From assembly GCA_021325135.1 (NCBI GenBank), contig JAJPHT010000050.1:1-40410 (forward strand): a stretch of DNA of 40,410 bases, written 5' to 3'. Below, piece after piece: positions 1,099 to 23,047 of the stretch (the stretch's first letter is position 1; every line of letters begins with the position of its first letter). The translations under genes and the position numbers were made by a program. The notes below the pieces were generated by a model. The model did no database searches, was not told the DNA's origin, and saw only the letters and a program-made list of their open reading frames with translations. The stretch comes from Pseudomonadota bacterium (lineage in GTDB: Archaea > Thermoplasmatota > SW-10-69-26 > JACQPN01 > JAJPHT01).

Positions 1099-1545
1099 TT
1101 AGGTTCGCATCCCCATGATGAACGCGTGCGCGCCCTGGAGGATGCGCCGTGGCCCCTCGAAGCTGACGCGCGCGAGCGCCTGCGGGTAGGGGAGCCACGC
1201 GAAGCCGGAGTGCTCGTGGCTGATCTTGACCTCGCGCGTCTGCGCCTCGATGAGGTAGAAGCGGACGTCCTTCTCGACCAGGGTGTGGCCGCGGCGGAAG
1301 CGGTAGTCGGTGTCGTCCTCGAAGCCGGCCAGGAGCCGCTGCGCCCCGATGGGGATGCCTGTCTCCTCGGCGACCTCGCGCTGCGCGGCCTGCACGTCGG
1401 TCTCGCCCGCCTCGACGTGCCCCTTGGGGAAGCCCCAGTTGCCGCCTCCGTAGCGGAGGAGCAGGTACTCGGGCCCCTCGAGCGTCGTGGCGTACACGAC
1501 GGCGCCCGCGGAGCGCTCCTTGACCCGCTTCCTGGGTGGCGACAT
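1099..1545 (-). CDS. NUDIX hydrolase, Ap4A-hydrolase-like
   Basis: WGFPKGHVEAGETDVQAAQREVAEETG Nudix box; SAGAVV and SHEH motifs. Confidence 0.9.
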   Translation of the reverse strand: MSPPRKRVKERSAGAVVYATTLEGPEYLLLRYGGGNWGFPKGHVEAGETDVQAAQREVAEETGIPIGAQRLLAGFEDDTDYRFRRGHTLVEKDVRFYLIEAQTREVKISHEHSGFAWLPYPQALARVSFEGPRRILQGAHAFIMGMRT

Positions 1546-16981: not shown

Positions 16982-18415
16982 ATGCAGACCCCTGCATCGA
17001 TCCGCGGCGTCCTGGCCCTCGGCCTCGTGGGCGCCCTCATCGCCATCCCGACCGCCGCCGCGTTCCCCCTGGGGGTGGACGCCGGCAGCGTGGGCGAATT
17101 CGACTCCGCGGGCGGCCACGCGGCCTTCGCCCAGACGTGGGTCGGCCCGTGGATGCGCTCCTCCGGCTGGGGCGGCTTCGAGAACGACCTGCGCGCCGCC
17201 TCGGACGCGGGCGCGACGCCCGTCGTCCTGTGGAACTACTGGGGCGACGCCATCACGCCAGGCTGCGTGCAGAACGGCTGCAACGGAATGTCGCGGGGCG
17301 AGTGGGACGCCATGGCGTCGACCCTCGCGCAGAAGGCCAACGCCGTCCTGGGCGGCCGCACGTTCTACGTCGTGCTGGAGCCCGAGTTCAACAAGGGCGG
17401 CATCACCGGCTGGGCGCCCTTCGATGGCTATCTTGCCGACCAGGCCAACCTCATCCGGAGCCAGGCGCCCGGCGCCAAGGTGGTCCTGGGCTTCGGCTCG
17501 TGGGGCGGCTACGAGTCGTTCCCCCGCGCCGCGGCGGCCTCCGACCTCGTGGGCTTCCAGTTCATGCGCGCCTCCACGCGGGACGCGCCCTCCGACGCGC
17601 AGGCCCCCTCGGGCGCCATGATCTCCACGGCGCAGACGCTCCGCGGCCTCTTCGCGAAGCCGGTGCTGGTCTTCGACGTGGCCATCGCCAGCTACGGGGG
17701 CTGGGAGTGGGTCCAGCAGGCGGCCTTCCGCGACCTGCAGGCGCGCAGCGGCGACCTCGCCGCGGCCGGCATCGTGGGCGTCGTGTGGCGCTCCGTGCAC
17801 GACATCTCGGGCGCCATCGGCTACTACGGGCCCGCCGAGAACAGCTTCGGCGTCAAGCGCGCCGATGGCAGCGCCAAGAGCGCGTGGCCCGACCTCGTCG
17901 CCCTCTCCCAGGGCGGCGGCGCCCCCGCGCCCTCCCAAGGGCTGTCCTTCGCCAGCGTCCACGGCAACGAGTGGTGGATCGAGGCCACCGTGACCGGCGG
18001 GCCCTCGTGGGTGAGCGCGCGCGTCGACGGCGGCCCCTGGATGGCCATGCAGCCCACCTCGTGGGGCACGTGGGGGCTTTCCGCGCACGCGCCGGCCGGC
18101 TCCCTGGTGGAGCTCCAGGCCGGAGGAGGCGGCGCGGCGACCATCACGGACTTCCGCGTGTGGTCCGGGTTCAGCGCGGGCTTCGCCAACGTCAAGGGCA
18201 ACGGCTGGTGGGTCCAGGCGGACGTCTCCGCCAACGCGCCGCTGGTGGACGTCAGCGCGTCCGTCAACGGCGGCCCGTGGACGCCCCTGGCCCTCCAGTG
18301 GTGGGGCTCGTGGGGTGCGACGGTGCAGGCGCCGGCCGGCTCCTCGGTGCAGCTTCGCGCCACGTCCGCGGCGGGGGACACCATGCTCTCGCAGGCGTAC
18401 CCCTGGTCCGGCTGA
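16982..18415 (+). CDS. Secreted glycoside-hydrolase-like protein with two C-terminal Trp-rich (expansin D2/CBM63-like) repeats
   Basis: Signal peptide; VVLEPEFN; tandem GNxWW...GGPWxxM/LxxxxWGxW...APAGSxVxL domains. Confidence 0.7.
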   Translation: MQTPASIRGVLALGLVGALIAIPTAAAFPLGVDAGSVGEFDSAGGHAAFAQTWVGPWMRSSGWGGFENDLRAASDAGATPVVLWNYWGDAITPGCVQNGCNGMSRGEWDAMASTLAQKANAVLGGRTFYVVLEPEFNKGGITGWAPFDGYLADQANLIRSQAPGAKVVLGFGSWGGYESFPRAAAASDLVGFQFMRASTRDAPSDAQAPSGAMISTAQTLRGLFAKPVLVFDVAIASYGGWEWVQQAAFRDLQARSGDLAAAGIVGVVWRSVHDISGAIGYYGPAENSFGVKRADGSAKSAWPDLVALSQGGGAPAPSQGLSFASVHGNEWWIEATVTGGPSWVSARVDGGPWMAMQPTSWGTWGLSAHAPAGSLVELQAGGGGAATITDFRVWSGFSAGFANVKGNGWWVQADVSANAPLVDVSASVNGGPWTPLALQWWGSWGATVQAPAGSSVQLRATSAAGDTMLSQAYPWSG

Positions 18416-18608
18416 CGCCCTTGGGCAAGGCGCGTGCCCCAAACGACGTCCTCGGGACCCTCCGAGGCATCGTTTGACAACCATGGTCGGCGGATTCCGG
18501 CAGATCGACGGTGTTTCGATCGCGGCAACGGCAGGCCGCCGACCCTCAAACCTTTCATCCAATGTCTTTATCCACCTCCGGGCCCACGCTCCGTCCCGAG
18601 GCCTGGGT

Positions 18609-19523
18609 ATGACGCGGCTGACCGCCCTCCTGTTGGGCATCCTTCTCCTCGCCCCGCTTGCCAGCGCGGGCGCCTCGCCGGCGACGCACGTCGCCGTCAA
18701 GGCGCCCTCGCCCGCGGGCCGCGCGCTGGACGACGCGAAGGCCCTCGCCTCGCACGCCTCGGAGGGCGTCTCGGCCGCCGCGCGCGGCGCGGGCGCCCTG
18801 GCCAGCGGCCTGGGCCACGCGCTGGCCTCGGCCGCCGCCGCGGTGGGCTCCCTCGCCAAGGGCGCCCTCCTCGCCGCGGGCCGCGCCCTCGCCGCCCTGG
18901 GCGCGCTCCTGGGCGGCCTCCTCGCGCGCGGCGCCAAGTGGTCCTTCGAGCACCCCGAGCAGGCCACCGACGCCGCGGGCGCCGACGTCAGCCTCGCCAT
19001 GCTCCTCTGGGTCGCCAAGCGCCTCGGCGCCTTCTCCTTCCTCGCCCCCCTCTACTCGCGCCTCGCGCCCAGCCAGATGCTGGAGAACGACGCGCGCAAC
19101 GCCGTCTACGAGCACGTCAAGGCGCACCCCGGCGCGCACCCCAGCGCCATCGCCGAGACGCTCAACCTCGGCTGGGGCACCGTCGTCTACCACCTGGGGA
19201 AGCTCGAGGCGACGAAGCTCGTCACCAGCCGCAACGCGCACAACCGCCGCTGCTACTTCGCCCTCACCAGCGACCTCGACGTGGACGCGCGCACCGCCGT
19301 CGCGGCCATGAGCACCGACAAGGCGCGCGCCATCGTGGACGTCGTCCGCGCAAGCCCCGGCATCAGCCAGAAGGACCTCTCCGAGCGCCTCGGCATCAGC
19401 CAGGCCCTCGCCTCGTGGCACGTCAAGCGCCTCGTGGAGAGCGGCGTCCTCACCGTGGGCCGCGAGGGCCGCAGCAACACGCTGCGCGTGGCGGGCCACG
19501 TGCCCGTGCTCGTCGCGGCGTGA
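18609..19523 (+). CDS. Membrane-associated double winged-HTH transcriptional regulator
   Basis: PLYSRL...LENDARNAVYEHVKAHPG...VVYHLGKL and PGISQKDLSERLGISQALASWHVKRL; hydrophobic Ala-rich N-terminus. Confidence 0.85.
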   Translation: MTRLTALLLGILLLAPLASAGASPATHVAVKAPSPAGRALDDAKALASHASEGVSAAARGAGALASGLGHALASAAAAVGSLAKGALLAAGRALAALGALLGGLLARGAKWSFEHPEQATDAAGADVSLAMLLWVAKRLGAFSFLAPLYSRLAPSQMLENDARNAVYEHVKAHPGAHPSAIAETLNLGWGTVVYHLGKLEATKLVTSRNAHNRRCYFALTSDLDVDARTAVAAMSTDKARAIVDVVRASPGISQKDLSERLGISQALASWHVKRLVESGVLTVGREGRSNTLRVAGHVPVLVAA

Positions 19524-20516
19524 TCAGCGGGCCGACGCGACCAGGTCGGCGAACGCCTCCGAAATGGGCAGACCGGCAAGCTCCTCCGCGAAGCCGAACG
19601 CCCCCATGCCGTTGGCCTCCAGGAAGACGTGCTCGCCCTGGGGCGTGACGATGAGGTCCATGGCGGCGTAGGCGAAGCCCAGGGCGCGCGCGGTGGCGCG
19701 CAGGCGCTCCGCGAGCCCTCCTGGCAAGGCGTAGGGACGGCACCTCCAGCGCGCGCGGTCGAGCGCGCCCTCGTGGCGCGGGTAGCGGCGCCAGTCGACC
19801 TTTGTCTCCTCGTCCTCCTGCGAGAGGATCTCCACCGCCATCACCGTCTCGCCCACGACGTAGGCGCGCGCCTCGGTGGCCTTCTCGACGTACTCCTGCG
19901 CCGCCAGCGGCGCGAGGTGCGCCTGGGCCAGCGCCTCGCCCGAGAGGTCCTCGGGGCTGACGCGGTGCGTGTAGAGGACCCACTCGTTTCCCGCGCCCTC
20001 GCCGATGCGCGGGAAGGGGTGGCTCACGCGCTTCACCGCGAGGCCCGAGGGGTGCTCCTTCGCGAAGGCCTCGATGGCGCCCGCGTCGTTGGAGACGAGG
20101 GAGCGCGGTGTCGCGACGCCCGCCCGCGCCGCGGCGCGAAGCTGGAACGGCTTGGACTCGCCCAGGAGGTACGCGTCCAGCGGGTTGACCCACAGGCGGT
20201 CGCGCGTGAGCTGGTGGAGCGCGATGAGGGAGGAGAACCACTCCTCCGTCGCGAACCGGCGCGCGTGCTCCGCCACGGGGGGCGGCTGGAGGACGAGGAA
20301 GTGGTTCACGAACGCGCGCGCGTCCTCCAGCGCCACGCGCCCGTCTGGCGTCTGCACGGAGCCGCCGACGCGCTCGCCGTCCACCTCCAGCGTGAGGCGG
20401 TTGCGCGACGGGTCCGACAGCTCGAACCCGAGGACGGGGATGCCCCGCGCCCGGATCGCGTCGATCATCCGGCGCGAGTACGGGTCCTGGTGCAGGGTGA
20501 AGACGATGGCGGCCAT
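19524..20516 (-). CDS. ATP-grasp RiPP maturase (graspetide synthetase, MvdC/MvdD-like)
   Basis: WVNP...ESKPFQLRAAARAGVATPRSLVSND, QEYVEKATEARAYVVG, VDWRR, DLIVTPQGEHVFLEAN. Confidence 0.88.
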   Translation of the reverse strand: MAAIVFTLHQDPYSRRMIDAIRARGIPVLGFELSDPSRNRLTLEVDGERVGGSVQTPDGRVALEDARAFVNHFLVLQPPPVAEHARRFATEEWFSSLIALHQLTRDRLWVNPLDAYLLGESKPFQLRAAARAGVATPRSLVSNDAGAIEAFAKEHPSGLAVKRVSHPFPRIGEGAGNEWVLYTHRVSPEDLSGEALAQAHLAPLAAQEYVEKATEARAYVVGETVMAVEILSQEDEETKVDWRRYPRHEGALDRARWRCRPYALPGGLAERLRATARALGFAYAAMDLIVTPQGEHVFLEANGMGAFGFAEELAGLPISEAFADLVASAR

Positions 20517-20547
20517 GAGAAGAAGGAGAAGGGGCGCCGGAGCGCCC
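20517..20547 (-). terminator. Intercistronic hairpin GGGCGC-TCCG-GCGCCC plus pyrimidine tract
   Basis: C(UCCG)G tetraloop stem followed by CTTCTCCTTCTTCTC between precursor and ligase. Confidence 0.45.
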
Positions 20548-20557
20548 GGGGATCGGC

Positions 20558-20662
20558 TCAGCTCGTGTGCATGAGGTAGACGTTGTCCATGAAGTTGGAC
20601 AGGCCCGGGAGGGGCTGCTTCGGCTGCTCGGCCCAGCGCATGGAGAGGGGGACTTCGTTCAT
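20558..20662 (-). CDS. Putative RiPP precursor peptide MNEVPLSMRWAEQPKQPLPGLSNFMDNVYLMHTS
   Basis: 41 nt upstream of the ATP-grasp gene on the same strand; GC3-biased codons; AGAAACGTTATG promoter ~26 nt upstream; PLSMRW leader-like motif. Confidence 0.7.
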   Translation of the reverse strand: MNEVPLSMRWAEQPKQPLPGLSNFMDNVYLMHTS

Positions 20663-20687
20663 GCGACCCCAGCAACCGGAGCGCCCC

Positions 20688-20700
20688 GCATAACGTTTCT
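20688..20700 (-). promoter_or_regulatory. BRE/TATA-like promoter of the precursor gene
   Basis: AGAAACGTTATGC matches the AAACGYT motif seen ~25 nt upstream of argS, ppiA, bcp and azlC. Confidence 0.6.
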
Positions 20701-20844
20701 GCGTAGAGAGGGTGCGGCTTCCGAGACGCCCGGCGCGCGGCCTTGACGAGTCCGGATCGCCTGGACTCCTGTGGAGGACCCCGCGGGATGCGCCGCCGCA
20801 TCGCTTATGCCGCCCCCTCCAGGTGGCGCTGCGGAGGCACACCC

Positions 20845-21090
20845 ATGAAGCTCTTCTCCGTCGCCCTCGTCGCGCTCTTCGCCCTCGCGGCCCTCGCCAG
20901 CGTCGTCCCGTCCGCCAGCGCGATGCCGCCCCTCTGCCAGTCCGACACCGTGGCCGTGGGGACCCTGGAGGTCGTCACGATCCGCCACGGCGCCGAGTGC
21001 GGCGCCTACCCCATCACGGTCTACGAGTGCACGCCCAAGTACGGCGAGGCCGCGCCGCTCCACTGGGACTGCACCGGCACCAACCTCTGA
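20845..21090 (+). CDS. Small secreted Cys-rich protein (4 Cys)
   Basis: MKLFSVALVALFALA...SASA signal peptide; GGAGG upstream. Confidence 0.75.
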   Translation: MKLFSVALVALFALAALASVVPSASAMPPLCQSDTVAVGTLEVVTIRHGAECGAYPITVYECTPKYGEAAPLHWDCTGTNL

Positions 21091-21096
21091 GCGCCT

Positions 21097-22047
21097 TCAC
21101 CCCACGGCCTCGGCGCCGAGCCGCTCCGCGATCCGCTCGTCGAACCAGTGGCCGTACACGTGGAAGCGCCGCGGGTGCACCACCTCGACGCCCGCGACGC
21201 CTTTGATATCAAGGAGGCTCCTCGTGACCTCCTCCACCTCGCCCGCGGAGGCGAGACTCATGGAGGCGTCCACGATGCGGTAGGGCAGGCCCAGGCCAAG
21301 CTCGGAGGGCGTCGCGATCTGGAGCAGGTCGGGCCGCAGGCGGCGCACCTCGCGCGCGACCTCGCCGGGCTTCGCGTCCTCGACGAGCCCCACGAGGAAG
21401 CGCGCCAGCACCGCGCCGCTCCAGCGCGTGAAGTCCAGGACCGGGATGCTCCACACGGCGCCGCCCGCGACCAGCGCCTCGTAGCGGCGGCGGAACGTCT
21501 TGACGCTCACGCCCGCGCGCGAGGCCGCCGCGGCCAGGGGGTCGCGCGCCGCGACGCGCAGCGCCTGGAGGATGCGCCAGTCCAGCGCGGTGGCCTTCGC
21601 CGAGCACGCGGGCGCGTCGTGGGGGATGCACGGTTCGAGCTCGTCCACGCCCGGAATGCGGCGCACGGCGGCCTCGCGGCGCGCCAGCGCGGCGGGCGAC
21701 TCGTGGGCGACGTGGATGGCCATCCAGGGGCCCACGTTGTCCGCGACGACGAGCACGCCGTCCACGAGGTCCAGCGCGCGCAGGACGCCCTCCTTGGCGC
21801 GCGGGTCGTCGACGCGCAGCGTGCCTCCCCCCATGCGGGCCCCGAAGAGGCGCACGTTGGGCACGACCTCGAAGCCCAGGAGGAAGCCGTCGCGCTCCCA
21901 GCGCCGCAGCCGCGCGCGCACCGTGCCCGGGTCGACGTGCAGGTCCTTGGCCAGCGCCTCGGCGCACAGCCTCGGGTCGAGGCTGCCCCACCAGAGCACC
22001 TGCTCCCGCGACATGGCGCGGAGGATCGACGCGTCCAGGGCGTCCAC
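21097..22047 (-). CDS. Lrp/AsnC-family regulator with two HTH-RAM modules
   Basis: VDALDASIL...TVRARLRRW..DG and ALDWRILQALR...GVSVKTFRRRYEAL. Confidence 0.8.
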   Translation of the reverse strand: MDALDASILRAMSREQVLWWGSLDPRLCAEALAKDLHVDPGTVRARLRRWERDGFLLGFEVVPNVRLFGARMGGGTLRVDDPRAKEGVLRALDLVDGVLVVADNVGPWMAIHVAHESPAALARREAAVRRIPGVDELEPCIPHDAPACSAKATALDWRILQALRVAARDPLAAAASRAGVSVKTFRRRYEALVAGGAVWSIPVLDFTRWSGAVLARFLVGLVEDAKPGEVAREVRRLRPDLLQIATPSELGLGLPYRIVDASMSLASAGEVEEVTRSLLDIKGVAGVEVVHPRRFHVYGHWFDERIAERLGAEAVG

Positions 22048-22083
22048 GGCGGTGGATCGGGCGCGCGGGCCAAAGAAGCTGCG

Positions 22084-22116
22084 TCCCTTTCCCGGAGCGC
22101 CGCGCCGGAAAAGGGA
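22084..22116. promoter_or_regulatory. Palindromic candidate operator between divergent regulator and hydrolase
   Basis: TCCCTTTCCCGG-N9-CCGGAAAAGGGA, 1 mismatch. Confidence 0.45.
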
Positions 22117-22195
22117 ACCTGGGGCGCGCCCGCGGGCTTTCCGCGGCCCTCCGCGCCCGAAGCCTGGATGGCCGCGCGAAGCCTTCCAAGCTTGC

Positions 22196-23047
22196 ATGGC
22201 CACCATCCTCGCCAACGGGACCAAGCTGGATTTCGAAGACCGCGGCCGCGGCGACCCCGTCGTGCTGGTGCACGGCGACGTCGGCGACCGCAGAAGCTGG
22301 GTCGCGGTCGCGCCGGTCTTGGCGCGCTCGCACCGCGTCCTCGCCTACAGCCGGCGGCACCACTGGCCCAACGAGGCCATCCGCCCCGGGGAGGGCAGCC
22401 TCCTCGACGTGCACGCGGCGGACCTCGTCGCGCTGCTGGAGGAGGCGGGCGCCGCGCCCGCGCACCTCGTGGGCCACTCCTTCGGCGCGTGCGTCGCGAT
22501 GCTCGTCGCCCGCGACCGGCCCGACCTCGTGCGCTCCCTGGTGCTCGTGGAGCCGCCCATGCTGCCCCTCGTCATGCGCGTGCCCCCGACGCCCGAGGAC
22601 CTGGAGCGCCTCGCGAAGGACGATCCCCTGCTCTCGCGGGCCGTGGACGAGCTCATGGCGCGCTGCCTTGCGCCCACCATCGCGGACTTCGCCCGGGGCG
22701 ACGTGCCCTCGGGCATCGCGCGCTTCCTGGCCTACCACGGCGAGCGCCAGGCGGCGGACCCCGCGCGCCTCGCGCAGGCGAACGACAACGGCGCCGTCAT
22801 GGCCGGGGCCCTGCTGGTGGGCCACTTCAGCCCGTTCACCGAGAGGGACGCGCGCTCGATCATGGCGCCGACGCTCCTCGTCACCGGATCGCAGAGCCCG
22901 CCCTACCTACGCCGGCTCGCGGAGCGCCTCGTCGCCCTCCTCCCCCGCGCCGAGCGCATCGACCTGCCCGGCGTCGGGCACTTCCTCCCCGAGGAGGCCC
23001 CCGAGGCGTTCGGCAAGGCCGCGCTGGGCTTCCTCGCGCGCCGCTGA
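22196..23047 (+). CDS. Alpha/beta hydrolase
   Basis: VVLVHG, GHSFG nucleophile elbow, GVGHFLPEEAP. Confidence 0.9.
   Translation: MATILANGTKLDFEDRGRGDPVVLVHGDVGDRRSWVAVAPVLARSHRVLAYSRRHHWPNEAIRPGEGSLLDVHAADLVALLEEAGAAPAHLVGHSFGACVAMLVARDRPDLVRSLVLVEPPMLPLVMRVPPTPEDLERLAKDDPLLSRAVDELMARCLAPTIADFARGDVPSGIARFLAYHGERQAADPARLAQANDNGAVMAGALLVGHFSPFTERDARSIMAPTLLVTGSQSPPYLRRLAERLVALLPRAERIDLPGVGHFLPEEAPEAFGKAALGFLARR

Follow-up and report, generated by a model that had tools for sequence, protein, structure and literature searches.

We analysed a 40,410-nucleotide stretch of archaeal DNA (contig JAJPHT010000050.1; the whole stretch is referred to here as the window) and identified in it a two-gene cassette encoding a 34-residue peptide and an ATP-grasp ligase of the kind that matures graspetides (omega-ester peptides). 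The minus strand carries the entire cassette, which consists of an A/T patch, a 34-codon open reading frame (ORF), a hairpin, a pyrimidine run and a 330-codon ligase gene (Table 1). The host is a soil archaeon of the Thermoplasmata with a genome (G000) of 3.77 Mb and 71.6% GC. An archaeal release factor containing eRF1 domains 1-3 is encoded on the same contig, and the closest relatives of the ligase come from metagenome-assembled genomes (MAGs) named Thermoplasmata archaeon, one genome of the same genus being Thermoplasmata archaeon BP_742. An earlier interpretation made from the nucleotide letters (the sequence-only reading) had described the 34-residue ORF with its downstream hairpin, pyrimidine tract and ATP-grasp gene, all of which were found as described; the promoter-like string that it placed at 20688-20700 is present but begins one nucleotide later, at 20689. 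Based on the comparisons presented below, we regard the cassette as a new precursor-ligase family inside the already known graspetide class.

Table 1. Features of the two-gene cassette, in window coordinates
Feature	Position	Strand	Basis
Promoter-like A/T patch AGAAACGTTATG	20689-20700	minus	sequence; putative promoter
Precursor peptide gene, 34 aa plus stop, product MNEVPLSMRWAEQPKQPLPGLSNFMDNVYLMHTS	ATG 20662 to TGA 20558	minus	ORF and homologues beside ligases
Leader recognition segment P5-L-S-M-R-W10-A-E12	20627-20650	minus	alignments A2, A3, A4
Predicted core S22-NFM-D26-NVYLMH-T33-S34	20561-20599 (D26, 20585-20587; S22, 20597-20599)	minus	family alignment
Intercistronic hairpin GGGCGC(UCCG)GCGCCC, UNCG-type tetraloop	20532-20547	minus	folding
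All-pyrimidine tract CTTCTCCTTCTTCTC, 15 nt	20517-20531	minus	sequence
Graspetide-type ATP-grasp macrocyclase, 330 aa (P0001)	19524-20516	minus	hidden Markov models, PDB search, predicted fold, tree

Affiliation of the ligase

Sequence and fold comparisons indicate that the ligase is an ATP-grasp enzyme of the MdnB/MdnC (MvdC/MvdD) branch. Its three best NCBIfam models are TIGR04187 (GRASP_SAV_5884; 3e-48), TIGR04184 (MvdD; 1e-38) and TIGR04185 (MvdC; 9e-38). These graspetide maturase models beat those of the amino-acid ligases by more than 30 orders of magnitude, as rimK_fam reaches 2e-6 (27.3 bits versus a cut-off of 143.4) and LysX 9e-3 (15.1 versus 275.6). All six matches in a sequence search of the PDB are graspetide ligases, with MdnC aligned across residues 4-328 (8e-26). 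The four motifs highlighted by the sequence-only reading (SKxxQL, QEYVEK, DWR and FLExN) are present as SKPFQL, QEYVEK, VDWRR and FLEAN, and each aligns with the corresponding MdnC motif.

The AlphaFold2 model of the ligase has a predicted local distance difference test score (pLDDT) of 88.4. When it was compared with known structures using Foldseek, ranks 1-31 were all graspetide macrocyclases (AMdnB, MdnC, PruB, CdnC, MdnB and PsnB), with template modelling (TM) scores of 0.65-0.80. The matches to AMdnB and MdnC (TM 0.79-0.80 over about 335 columns) include the N-terminal pre-ATP-grasp domain, consistent with an MdnC-like three-domain fold. The next fold matches are LysX, ArgX and RimK, at TM of about 0.60-0.66. 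Phylogenetic analysis of 112 rows, made with FastTree and with this genome's own RimK/LysX-family protein as outgroup (a quick method, so that deep branching is tentative), placed the ligase within a 19-row clade with local support of 99, nested among ligases named MvdC or MvdD by their sources. The RimK/LysX protein of the genome lies on a branch of length 3.9. Models, tree and predicted fold therefore agree in placing the enzyme with the graspetide synthetases and not with RimK, LysX or CofF, as had been proposed from the sequence.

Alternatively, the ligase may add an amino acid or amine to Asp26 or to the C-terminal carboxylate, in which case the peptide would be a carrier or a tailed product, as in the LysX-LysW and RimK-S6 systems. 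The superfamily includes such enzymes, which are also the secondary fold matches of the ligase (TM about 0.6 for LysX, ArgX and RimK); in addition, the core has only one acid, and the last two or three residues of the peptide are fairly conserved. We nevertheless consider this very improbable, given that the RimK and LysX models score far under their cut-offs and that the genome has a separate gene of the true RimK/LysX family. The latter, on contig C27, was found at 283 bits by a six-frame RimK search of the genome that did not return the cassette ligase. Furthermore, the peptide has no acidic C-terminal tail like those of LysW and S6, and its leader motif is of the graspetide type.

The reading frame of the ligase remains open for 95 codons upstream of 20516, up to an ATG at 20801 (window 19524-20801, minus strand; a 425-residue ORF), and this extension overlaps the precursor gene in a different frame. 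A gene caller could absorb the precursor into the longer ORF. The start at 20516 is supported by the N-termini of homologues, which read MTAIVFT, MSAIVFT and MTAIIFT.

A family of short genes linked to the ligase

The sequence-only reading had suggested looking for a conserved short ORF beside homologous ligases. We identified related short ORFs (32-52 residues) adjoining a related ligase in about 20 loci, and in all related loci with readable DNA the ligase is accompanied by a linked homologous short ORF; the named sources are all Thermoplasmata. The precursors of the more distant loci were identified by manual reading of all frames. In the family alignment of 19 peptides (A4), P-x4-W is invariant (19/19; here P5 and W10, within PLSMRW). 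Amino-acid conservation starts precisely at the Met of the short ORF, and it holds between loci with as little as 37-55% identity among their ligases. The PLSMRW segment fits the published general leader signature of graspetides ('Phhx(1,2)h plus aromatic') and resembles the microviridin leader helix PFFARFL (PMC8939145). The invariance of P-x4-W beside homologous ligases supports the earlier suggestion that PLSMRW is a divergent leader. Leader subfamilies track ligase subclades, a co-variation already published for graspetides (PMC8939145).

A profile built from 13 of the peptides retrieved only 14 small proteins among 5.8 billion clusters. Called peptides outside the 13-member profile matched at database-scale E-values of 1e-6 to 3e-8, and one match led to a contig (L063) with two tandem precursors and a ligase start directly after them. 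Searches of Pfam and NCBIfam with the precursor peptide gave no match, and no further precursor copies of this peptide type were found in the genome. Contrary to the expectation that automated annotation would miss the peptide, the 34-residue protein and several of its homologues have already been called, some as 'hypothetical protein'.

The precursors can be grouped by their cores and leaders. Subfamily A (the window, L003, L055 and L063) has the core SNFMDN[VI]YLM[HW]T, which is near-invariant in the four peptides and is preceded by a linker that varies. A second core type (...TDYVDWN...) occurs in L005 and in the second gene of L063, and subfamily B (L011, L056, L057, L058, P0123 and P0127) is exemplified by MEPTATRWMETRPQANLSGYSLDVILGHVTSL. 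A more acidic type, exemplified by ...PFATEW...ATYSDMDESEPKDTFYW, is found in L007 and L035, and a sister clade (L036-L038, P0130 and P0131) is represented by ...RPLVLLWSE...RITSLGDLYAGGWEGVYTY.

The precursor gene lies upstream of the ligase gene on the same strand in most loci, and downstream, on the opposite strand or in tandem elsewhere. In the sister ligase clade it is downstream of the ligase gene (L036:2347-2505, L037:2668-2826 and L038:1867-2013), with the leader RPLVLLWSE and the core ...GDLYAGGWEGVYTY. In L035 the precursor gene (1249-1374, minus strand) is divergent from the ligase gene on the opposite strand. The tandem precursors of L063 (2411-2878) are 2 nt apart and have alike leaders and differing cores, SNFMDNVYLMWTG and TDYVDWNGIFFTSG; the ligase start is 1 nt past the second, and a single ligase apparently serves both core types. 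A same-strand upstream ORF in L035 that has no acidic residue, and that might have suggested C-terminal carboxylate chemistry, was rejected because the true homologue, PFALEW...TTYCEMDGSEGDTYYY, is on the opposite strand and recurs as P0124. Since the genes around the pair are not conserved across loci, we consider the pair itself to be the unit.

The linkage survives these changes in gene order, ruling out a cis-acting upstream ORF, and such persistence through rearrangement is typical of the precursors of RiPPs (peptides that the ribosome makes and that are modified after translation). It bears on the view that the short ORF is not the substrate but a chance ORF, a regulatory upstream ORF or an attenuator, with the real substrate encoded elsewhere. 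Spurious ORFs abound at the GC content of this genome, the hairpin past the ORF resembles an attenuator, and codon-level substitution counts are uninformative (synonymous and non-synonymous changes are about equal in a gene too short to inform). This view is hardly credible, however, as residues are conserved from the Met onward among loci with strongly diverged ligases, and the linkage is retained with the peptide gene upstream, downstream or on the opposite strand, which is incompatible with a cis-acting element. Tandem duplication with a diversified core is likewise typical of RiPP precursors, and the genome offers no other copy of this peptide type. Overall, the comparisons across loci indicate that the short ORF is a real gene.

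Core composition and the predicted ring

The core of the window peptide is about 13 residues long (SNFMDNVYLMHTS) and contains one acid (D26), three hydroxyls (S22, T33 and S34) and no Lys, a minimal set of donors and acceptor for a graspetide. The sequence-only reading had described the same single Asp and the same three donors as atypical of graspetides; within this family a single acid proves to be typical (10/19 cores), and Lys is mostly absent. Because the core has a single acidic residue, one ring at most can form. A Ser or Thr at -4 or -5 from an Asp or Glu ([ST]-x(3,4)-[DE]) occurs in 19/19 cores versus 7.9 expected from shuffles, a count that uses related sequences (about five independent subfamilies) and that, taken at the level of subfamilies, gives a signal that appears modest but real. 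Microviridin has a Ser-to-acid spacing of i to i+4 (S9-E13). Given these analyses, we consider it probable that the pair is a self-contained graspetide cassette that makes a single ring of the Ser22/Asp26 type under guidance of the leader. The product would most likely be a single Ser22-Asp26 ester, the main alternative being an Asp26-Thr33 ester.

In that alternative, the same system would join Asp26 to Thr33 (i to i+7) in an 8-residue C-terminal ring, and Ser22 might, for example, position the substrate. Conservation also extends to a Thr at +7 from the Asp, which 12/19 peptides have as read from A4 (subfamily A, subfamily B, both L063 peptides and L007), and characterized graspetides commonly have rings of 7-8 residues. 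However, L005 lacks the +7 Thr and the downstream-type precursors have it at a shifted position, whereas every core has a hydroxyl at -4 or -5, and in most characterized graspetides the hydroxyl donor is N-terminal to the acid. We thus regard an Asp26-Thr33 ring as unlikely, if worth keeping in view.

Besides the relatedness of the sequences counted and the conserved +7 Thr, several observations weigh against a leader-guided Ser22-Asp26 cassette. The ligase scores under the curated cut-offs of its best models (164.5 versus 350 bits for TIGR04187, 132.9 versus 475 for MvdD and 130.2 versus 425 for MvdC); because it is under every curated graspetide cut-off, we consider it a divergent relative that is outside each curated NCBIfam graspetide family. 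In a Pfam search at E <= 0.01 the ligase matched no ATP-grasp domain and no MvdD pre-ATP-grasp domain, with R2K_2 as a sub-threshold match only. The one-acid, Lys-free core is unusual, and the ring partner is undecidable from sequence. Also, no transporter or peptidase adjoins the pair at the window locus, as had been noted before, or at related loci, leaving the pair without a linked protease or exporter.

The contact between leader and ligase is a further point of this kind. The structure prediction that the sequence-only reading had proposed for this complex was made with alignments of both chains, three runs and three controls, and gave a score of 0.45 (runs 0.43, 0.45 and 0.52; best control 0.00). 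This reaches the pass mark, which is also reached by 58/80 solved complexes and 2/110 mismatched pairs; values of 0.60 or less were obtained for only 7 of the 80 solved complexes, plus both passing mismatches. At least 52% of contacts agree between the runs, with a pLDDT of 52 or more for the partner. Because similar complexes have been solved (5IG9, MdnC-MdnA; 7MGV, CdnC; 7DRM, PsnB), the predictor may have passed this pair by recalling those structures, and the prediction lends weak support to the contact.

For the Ser22-Asp26 product, we propose that the MvdC/MvdD-like ligase would bind the leader at a segment centered on P5-x4-W10, the counterpart of the PFFARFL helix. It would then spend ATP on converting the Asp26 side-chain carboxylate to an activated acyl phosphate, and a hydroxyl, most likely that of Ser22 (i to i+4) or alternatively that of Thr33, would attack this intermediate to yield a single macrolactone ring with a mass change of -18 Da. 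More precursor message relative to ligase message may result from the hairpin and pyrimidine tract between the genes. Host functions would have to provide any leader removal and export, because the cassette includes neither a protease nor an exporter of its own. Judging from other graspetides, inhibition of proteases is the first candidate for bioactivity. We also speculate, as something of a long shot, that the product is an uncleaved and unexported single-ring lactone of 32-35 residues active inside the cell, where it might inhibit or regulate, for instance, a protease of the host or of a virus; in a variant of this idea, Thr33 would take part in chemistry unseen in graspetides. If either were true, the family would be functionally distinct from the secreted protease inhibitors of bacteria.

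Surroundings of the cassette and relation to known graspetides

The cassette resembles the microviridin system (graspetide group 1; MdnA with MdnC and MdnB; PDB 5IG9, 5IG8 and 7M4S) in that its ligase matches MdnC from end to end (E 8e-26, TM 0.79) and shares with it the K, QE..K, DWR and FLExN motifs. Both systems have a short precursor with an N-terminal leader of the form P-hydrophobic-...-R-aromatic (PLSMRW and PFFARFL) and a C-terminal core. Unlike the microviridin system, which has two ligases, the archaeal cassette has one, which scores far under the MvdC and MvdD equivalog cut-offs, and PLSMRW matches PFFARFL only at the P, R and aromatic positions. The archaeal core, with one Asp and no Lys, permits one ester and no lactam and does not contain TxKxPSDx(E/D)(D/E), the tricyclic microviridin motif with Thr, Lys, Ser and three acids. 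The cassette also differs in having no GNAT or ABC transporter gene and in its archaeal host. PsnB (plesiocin, 7DRM), CdnC (chryseoviridin, 7MGV) and PruB (9BOU) have the same fold (TM 0.65-0.73) and are less similar in sequence to the cassette ligase than MdnC is; their catalysis depends on the leader, as is proposed for the cassette ligase. In their substrate cores several acids and hydroxyls are present, often in repeats, and multiple rings are formed.

Clusters 281 and 1028 of Makarova et al. 2022 comprise predicted precursors for which one ester is theoretically possible (PMC8939145). They have the same single-ester limit as the archaeal family, but they are bacterial (Shewanella, Massilia and Prevotella) and have an unrelated leader and core. 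The leader and core strings of the archaeal family were not found in the text of the supplements of that study (PMC8939145). The archaeal ligases listed in those supplements are from Methanolacinia paynteri and Methanoculleus sp. MAB1 (both group 7, cluster 171), from archaeon GW2011_AR18 and from Methanosarcina MTP4, with precursors assigned to two of the entries (PMC8939145). These entries also carry MvdC/MvdD-type ligases, but they represent other lineages, namely methanogens and DPANN, with no Thermoplasmata among them. Their precursors also differ, being 68 residues long with the core ...KKxDxETGEDxKGE, and the entries appear in supplementary tables only, undiscussed and uncharacterized. 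The literature searched contained no paper that discusses an archaeal graspetide in its text and no experimentally characterized archaeal example. An archaeal graspetide is nonetheless not unprecedented, as might have been supposed, since a small number of ligases and precursors from Archaea are already included in the published catalogue.

The distribution of the ligase is patchy, with matches at E <= 1e-20 in 6/401 sampled genomes of the phylum, the host genome included. On viral contigs we found only relatives at <=30% identity and no sign of a virus-borne cassette.

The host genome contains a second graspetide pair (L002:2433-2540, minus strand, on contig C36, with its ligase at C36:149411-150103). 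Like the cassette in the window, it consists of two genes, a 35-residue precursor (MKRRTAPFLYARAERADLGPVGATFDRETIKNEGQ) and a ligase, and the two ligases are only 41% identical. Its leader reads PFLYAR, and several acids, together with Thr and Lys, are present in its core (ATFDRETIKNEGQ), such that multiple rings are possible. The stop of the precursor gene and the start of the ligase gene overlap, and the same pair is found in a same-genus genome (L008). Another graspetide-like family lies directly upstream of a ligase match in Pacearchaeota and Woesearchaeota MAGs and a metagenome contig (L042, L039 and L014). These DPANN precursors are about 90 residues long, contain LPFGIQYLEKPK and end in WPGTTGTGPSAKEDERYGENG. 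In the part of the published catalogue considered here, a DPANN ligase is listed without a precursor cluster (PMC8939145).

The A/T patch upstream of the precursor gene (AGAAACGTTATG) includes TTAT at 28-31 nt before the ATG, and comparable patches are located 25-40 nt before the ATG in L003, L055 and L005. It would fit a TATA box of the archaeal type from which a transcript with little or no leader is made. This is suggestive only, because such patches are not rare by composition; an equally A/T-rich 10-mer is expected about every 130 nt at 71.6% GC (binomial estimate).

The intercistronic hairpin has a folding energy of -14.2 kcal/mol (z = -2.58), and 3/200 shuffles fold as well. GC-rich hairpins of unrelated sequence occur at the same spacer position in 7 other loci, and a spacer hairpin is present in 8/11 loci with a same-strand upstream precursor. 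As it is absent from two close relatives, L055 (15-nt spacer) and L063 (1-nt spacer), the hairpin is optional, and the comparison of loci suggests an element that is recurrent but dispensable. The pyrimidine tract directly precedes the ligase ATG, with no purine-rich ribosome-binding site, and C/T-rich tracts also follow the hairpin in L003, L011, L056, L057 and L058. The tract may have a role in weak termination or in translation control. The precursor genes of subfamily B, unlike the ligase starts, have GGAGG 13 nt before the ATG.

Several other genes flank the cassette. Divergent from the precursor gene is a gene (window 20845-21090, plus strand) for an 81-residue protein with a signal-peptide-like N-terminus and four Cys, which is 73% identical to the product of a divergent 82-residue gene beside the same-genus cassette (L003:2496-2744). 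We rejected this protein as a member of the cassette, as its conservation is limited to the same-genus genome and other loci lack it; its position is probably mere synteny. Convergent with the ligase gene is a gene (window 18315-19523, plus strand) whose product has HVO_0163-type and MarR/ArsR-type winged helices and, judged by eye, an apparent N-terminal membrane or signal region. On the other side, window 21097-22224 (minus strand) encodes a helix-turn-helix protein with two AsnC/HTH_24 domains. These two flanking helix-turn-helix proteins are not conserved beside related cassettes.

Overall, the family comprises about twenty very small precursors (32-52 residues), each with one dedicated ligase and a clear P-x4-W, and half of them have a sole possible acceptor. 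The cassette is perhaps the simplest natural system in which to study how a leader is read, how a ring is chosen and what role graspetides may have in Archaea.

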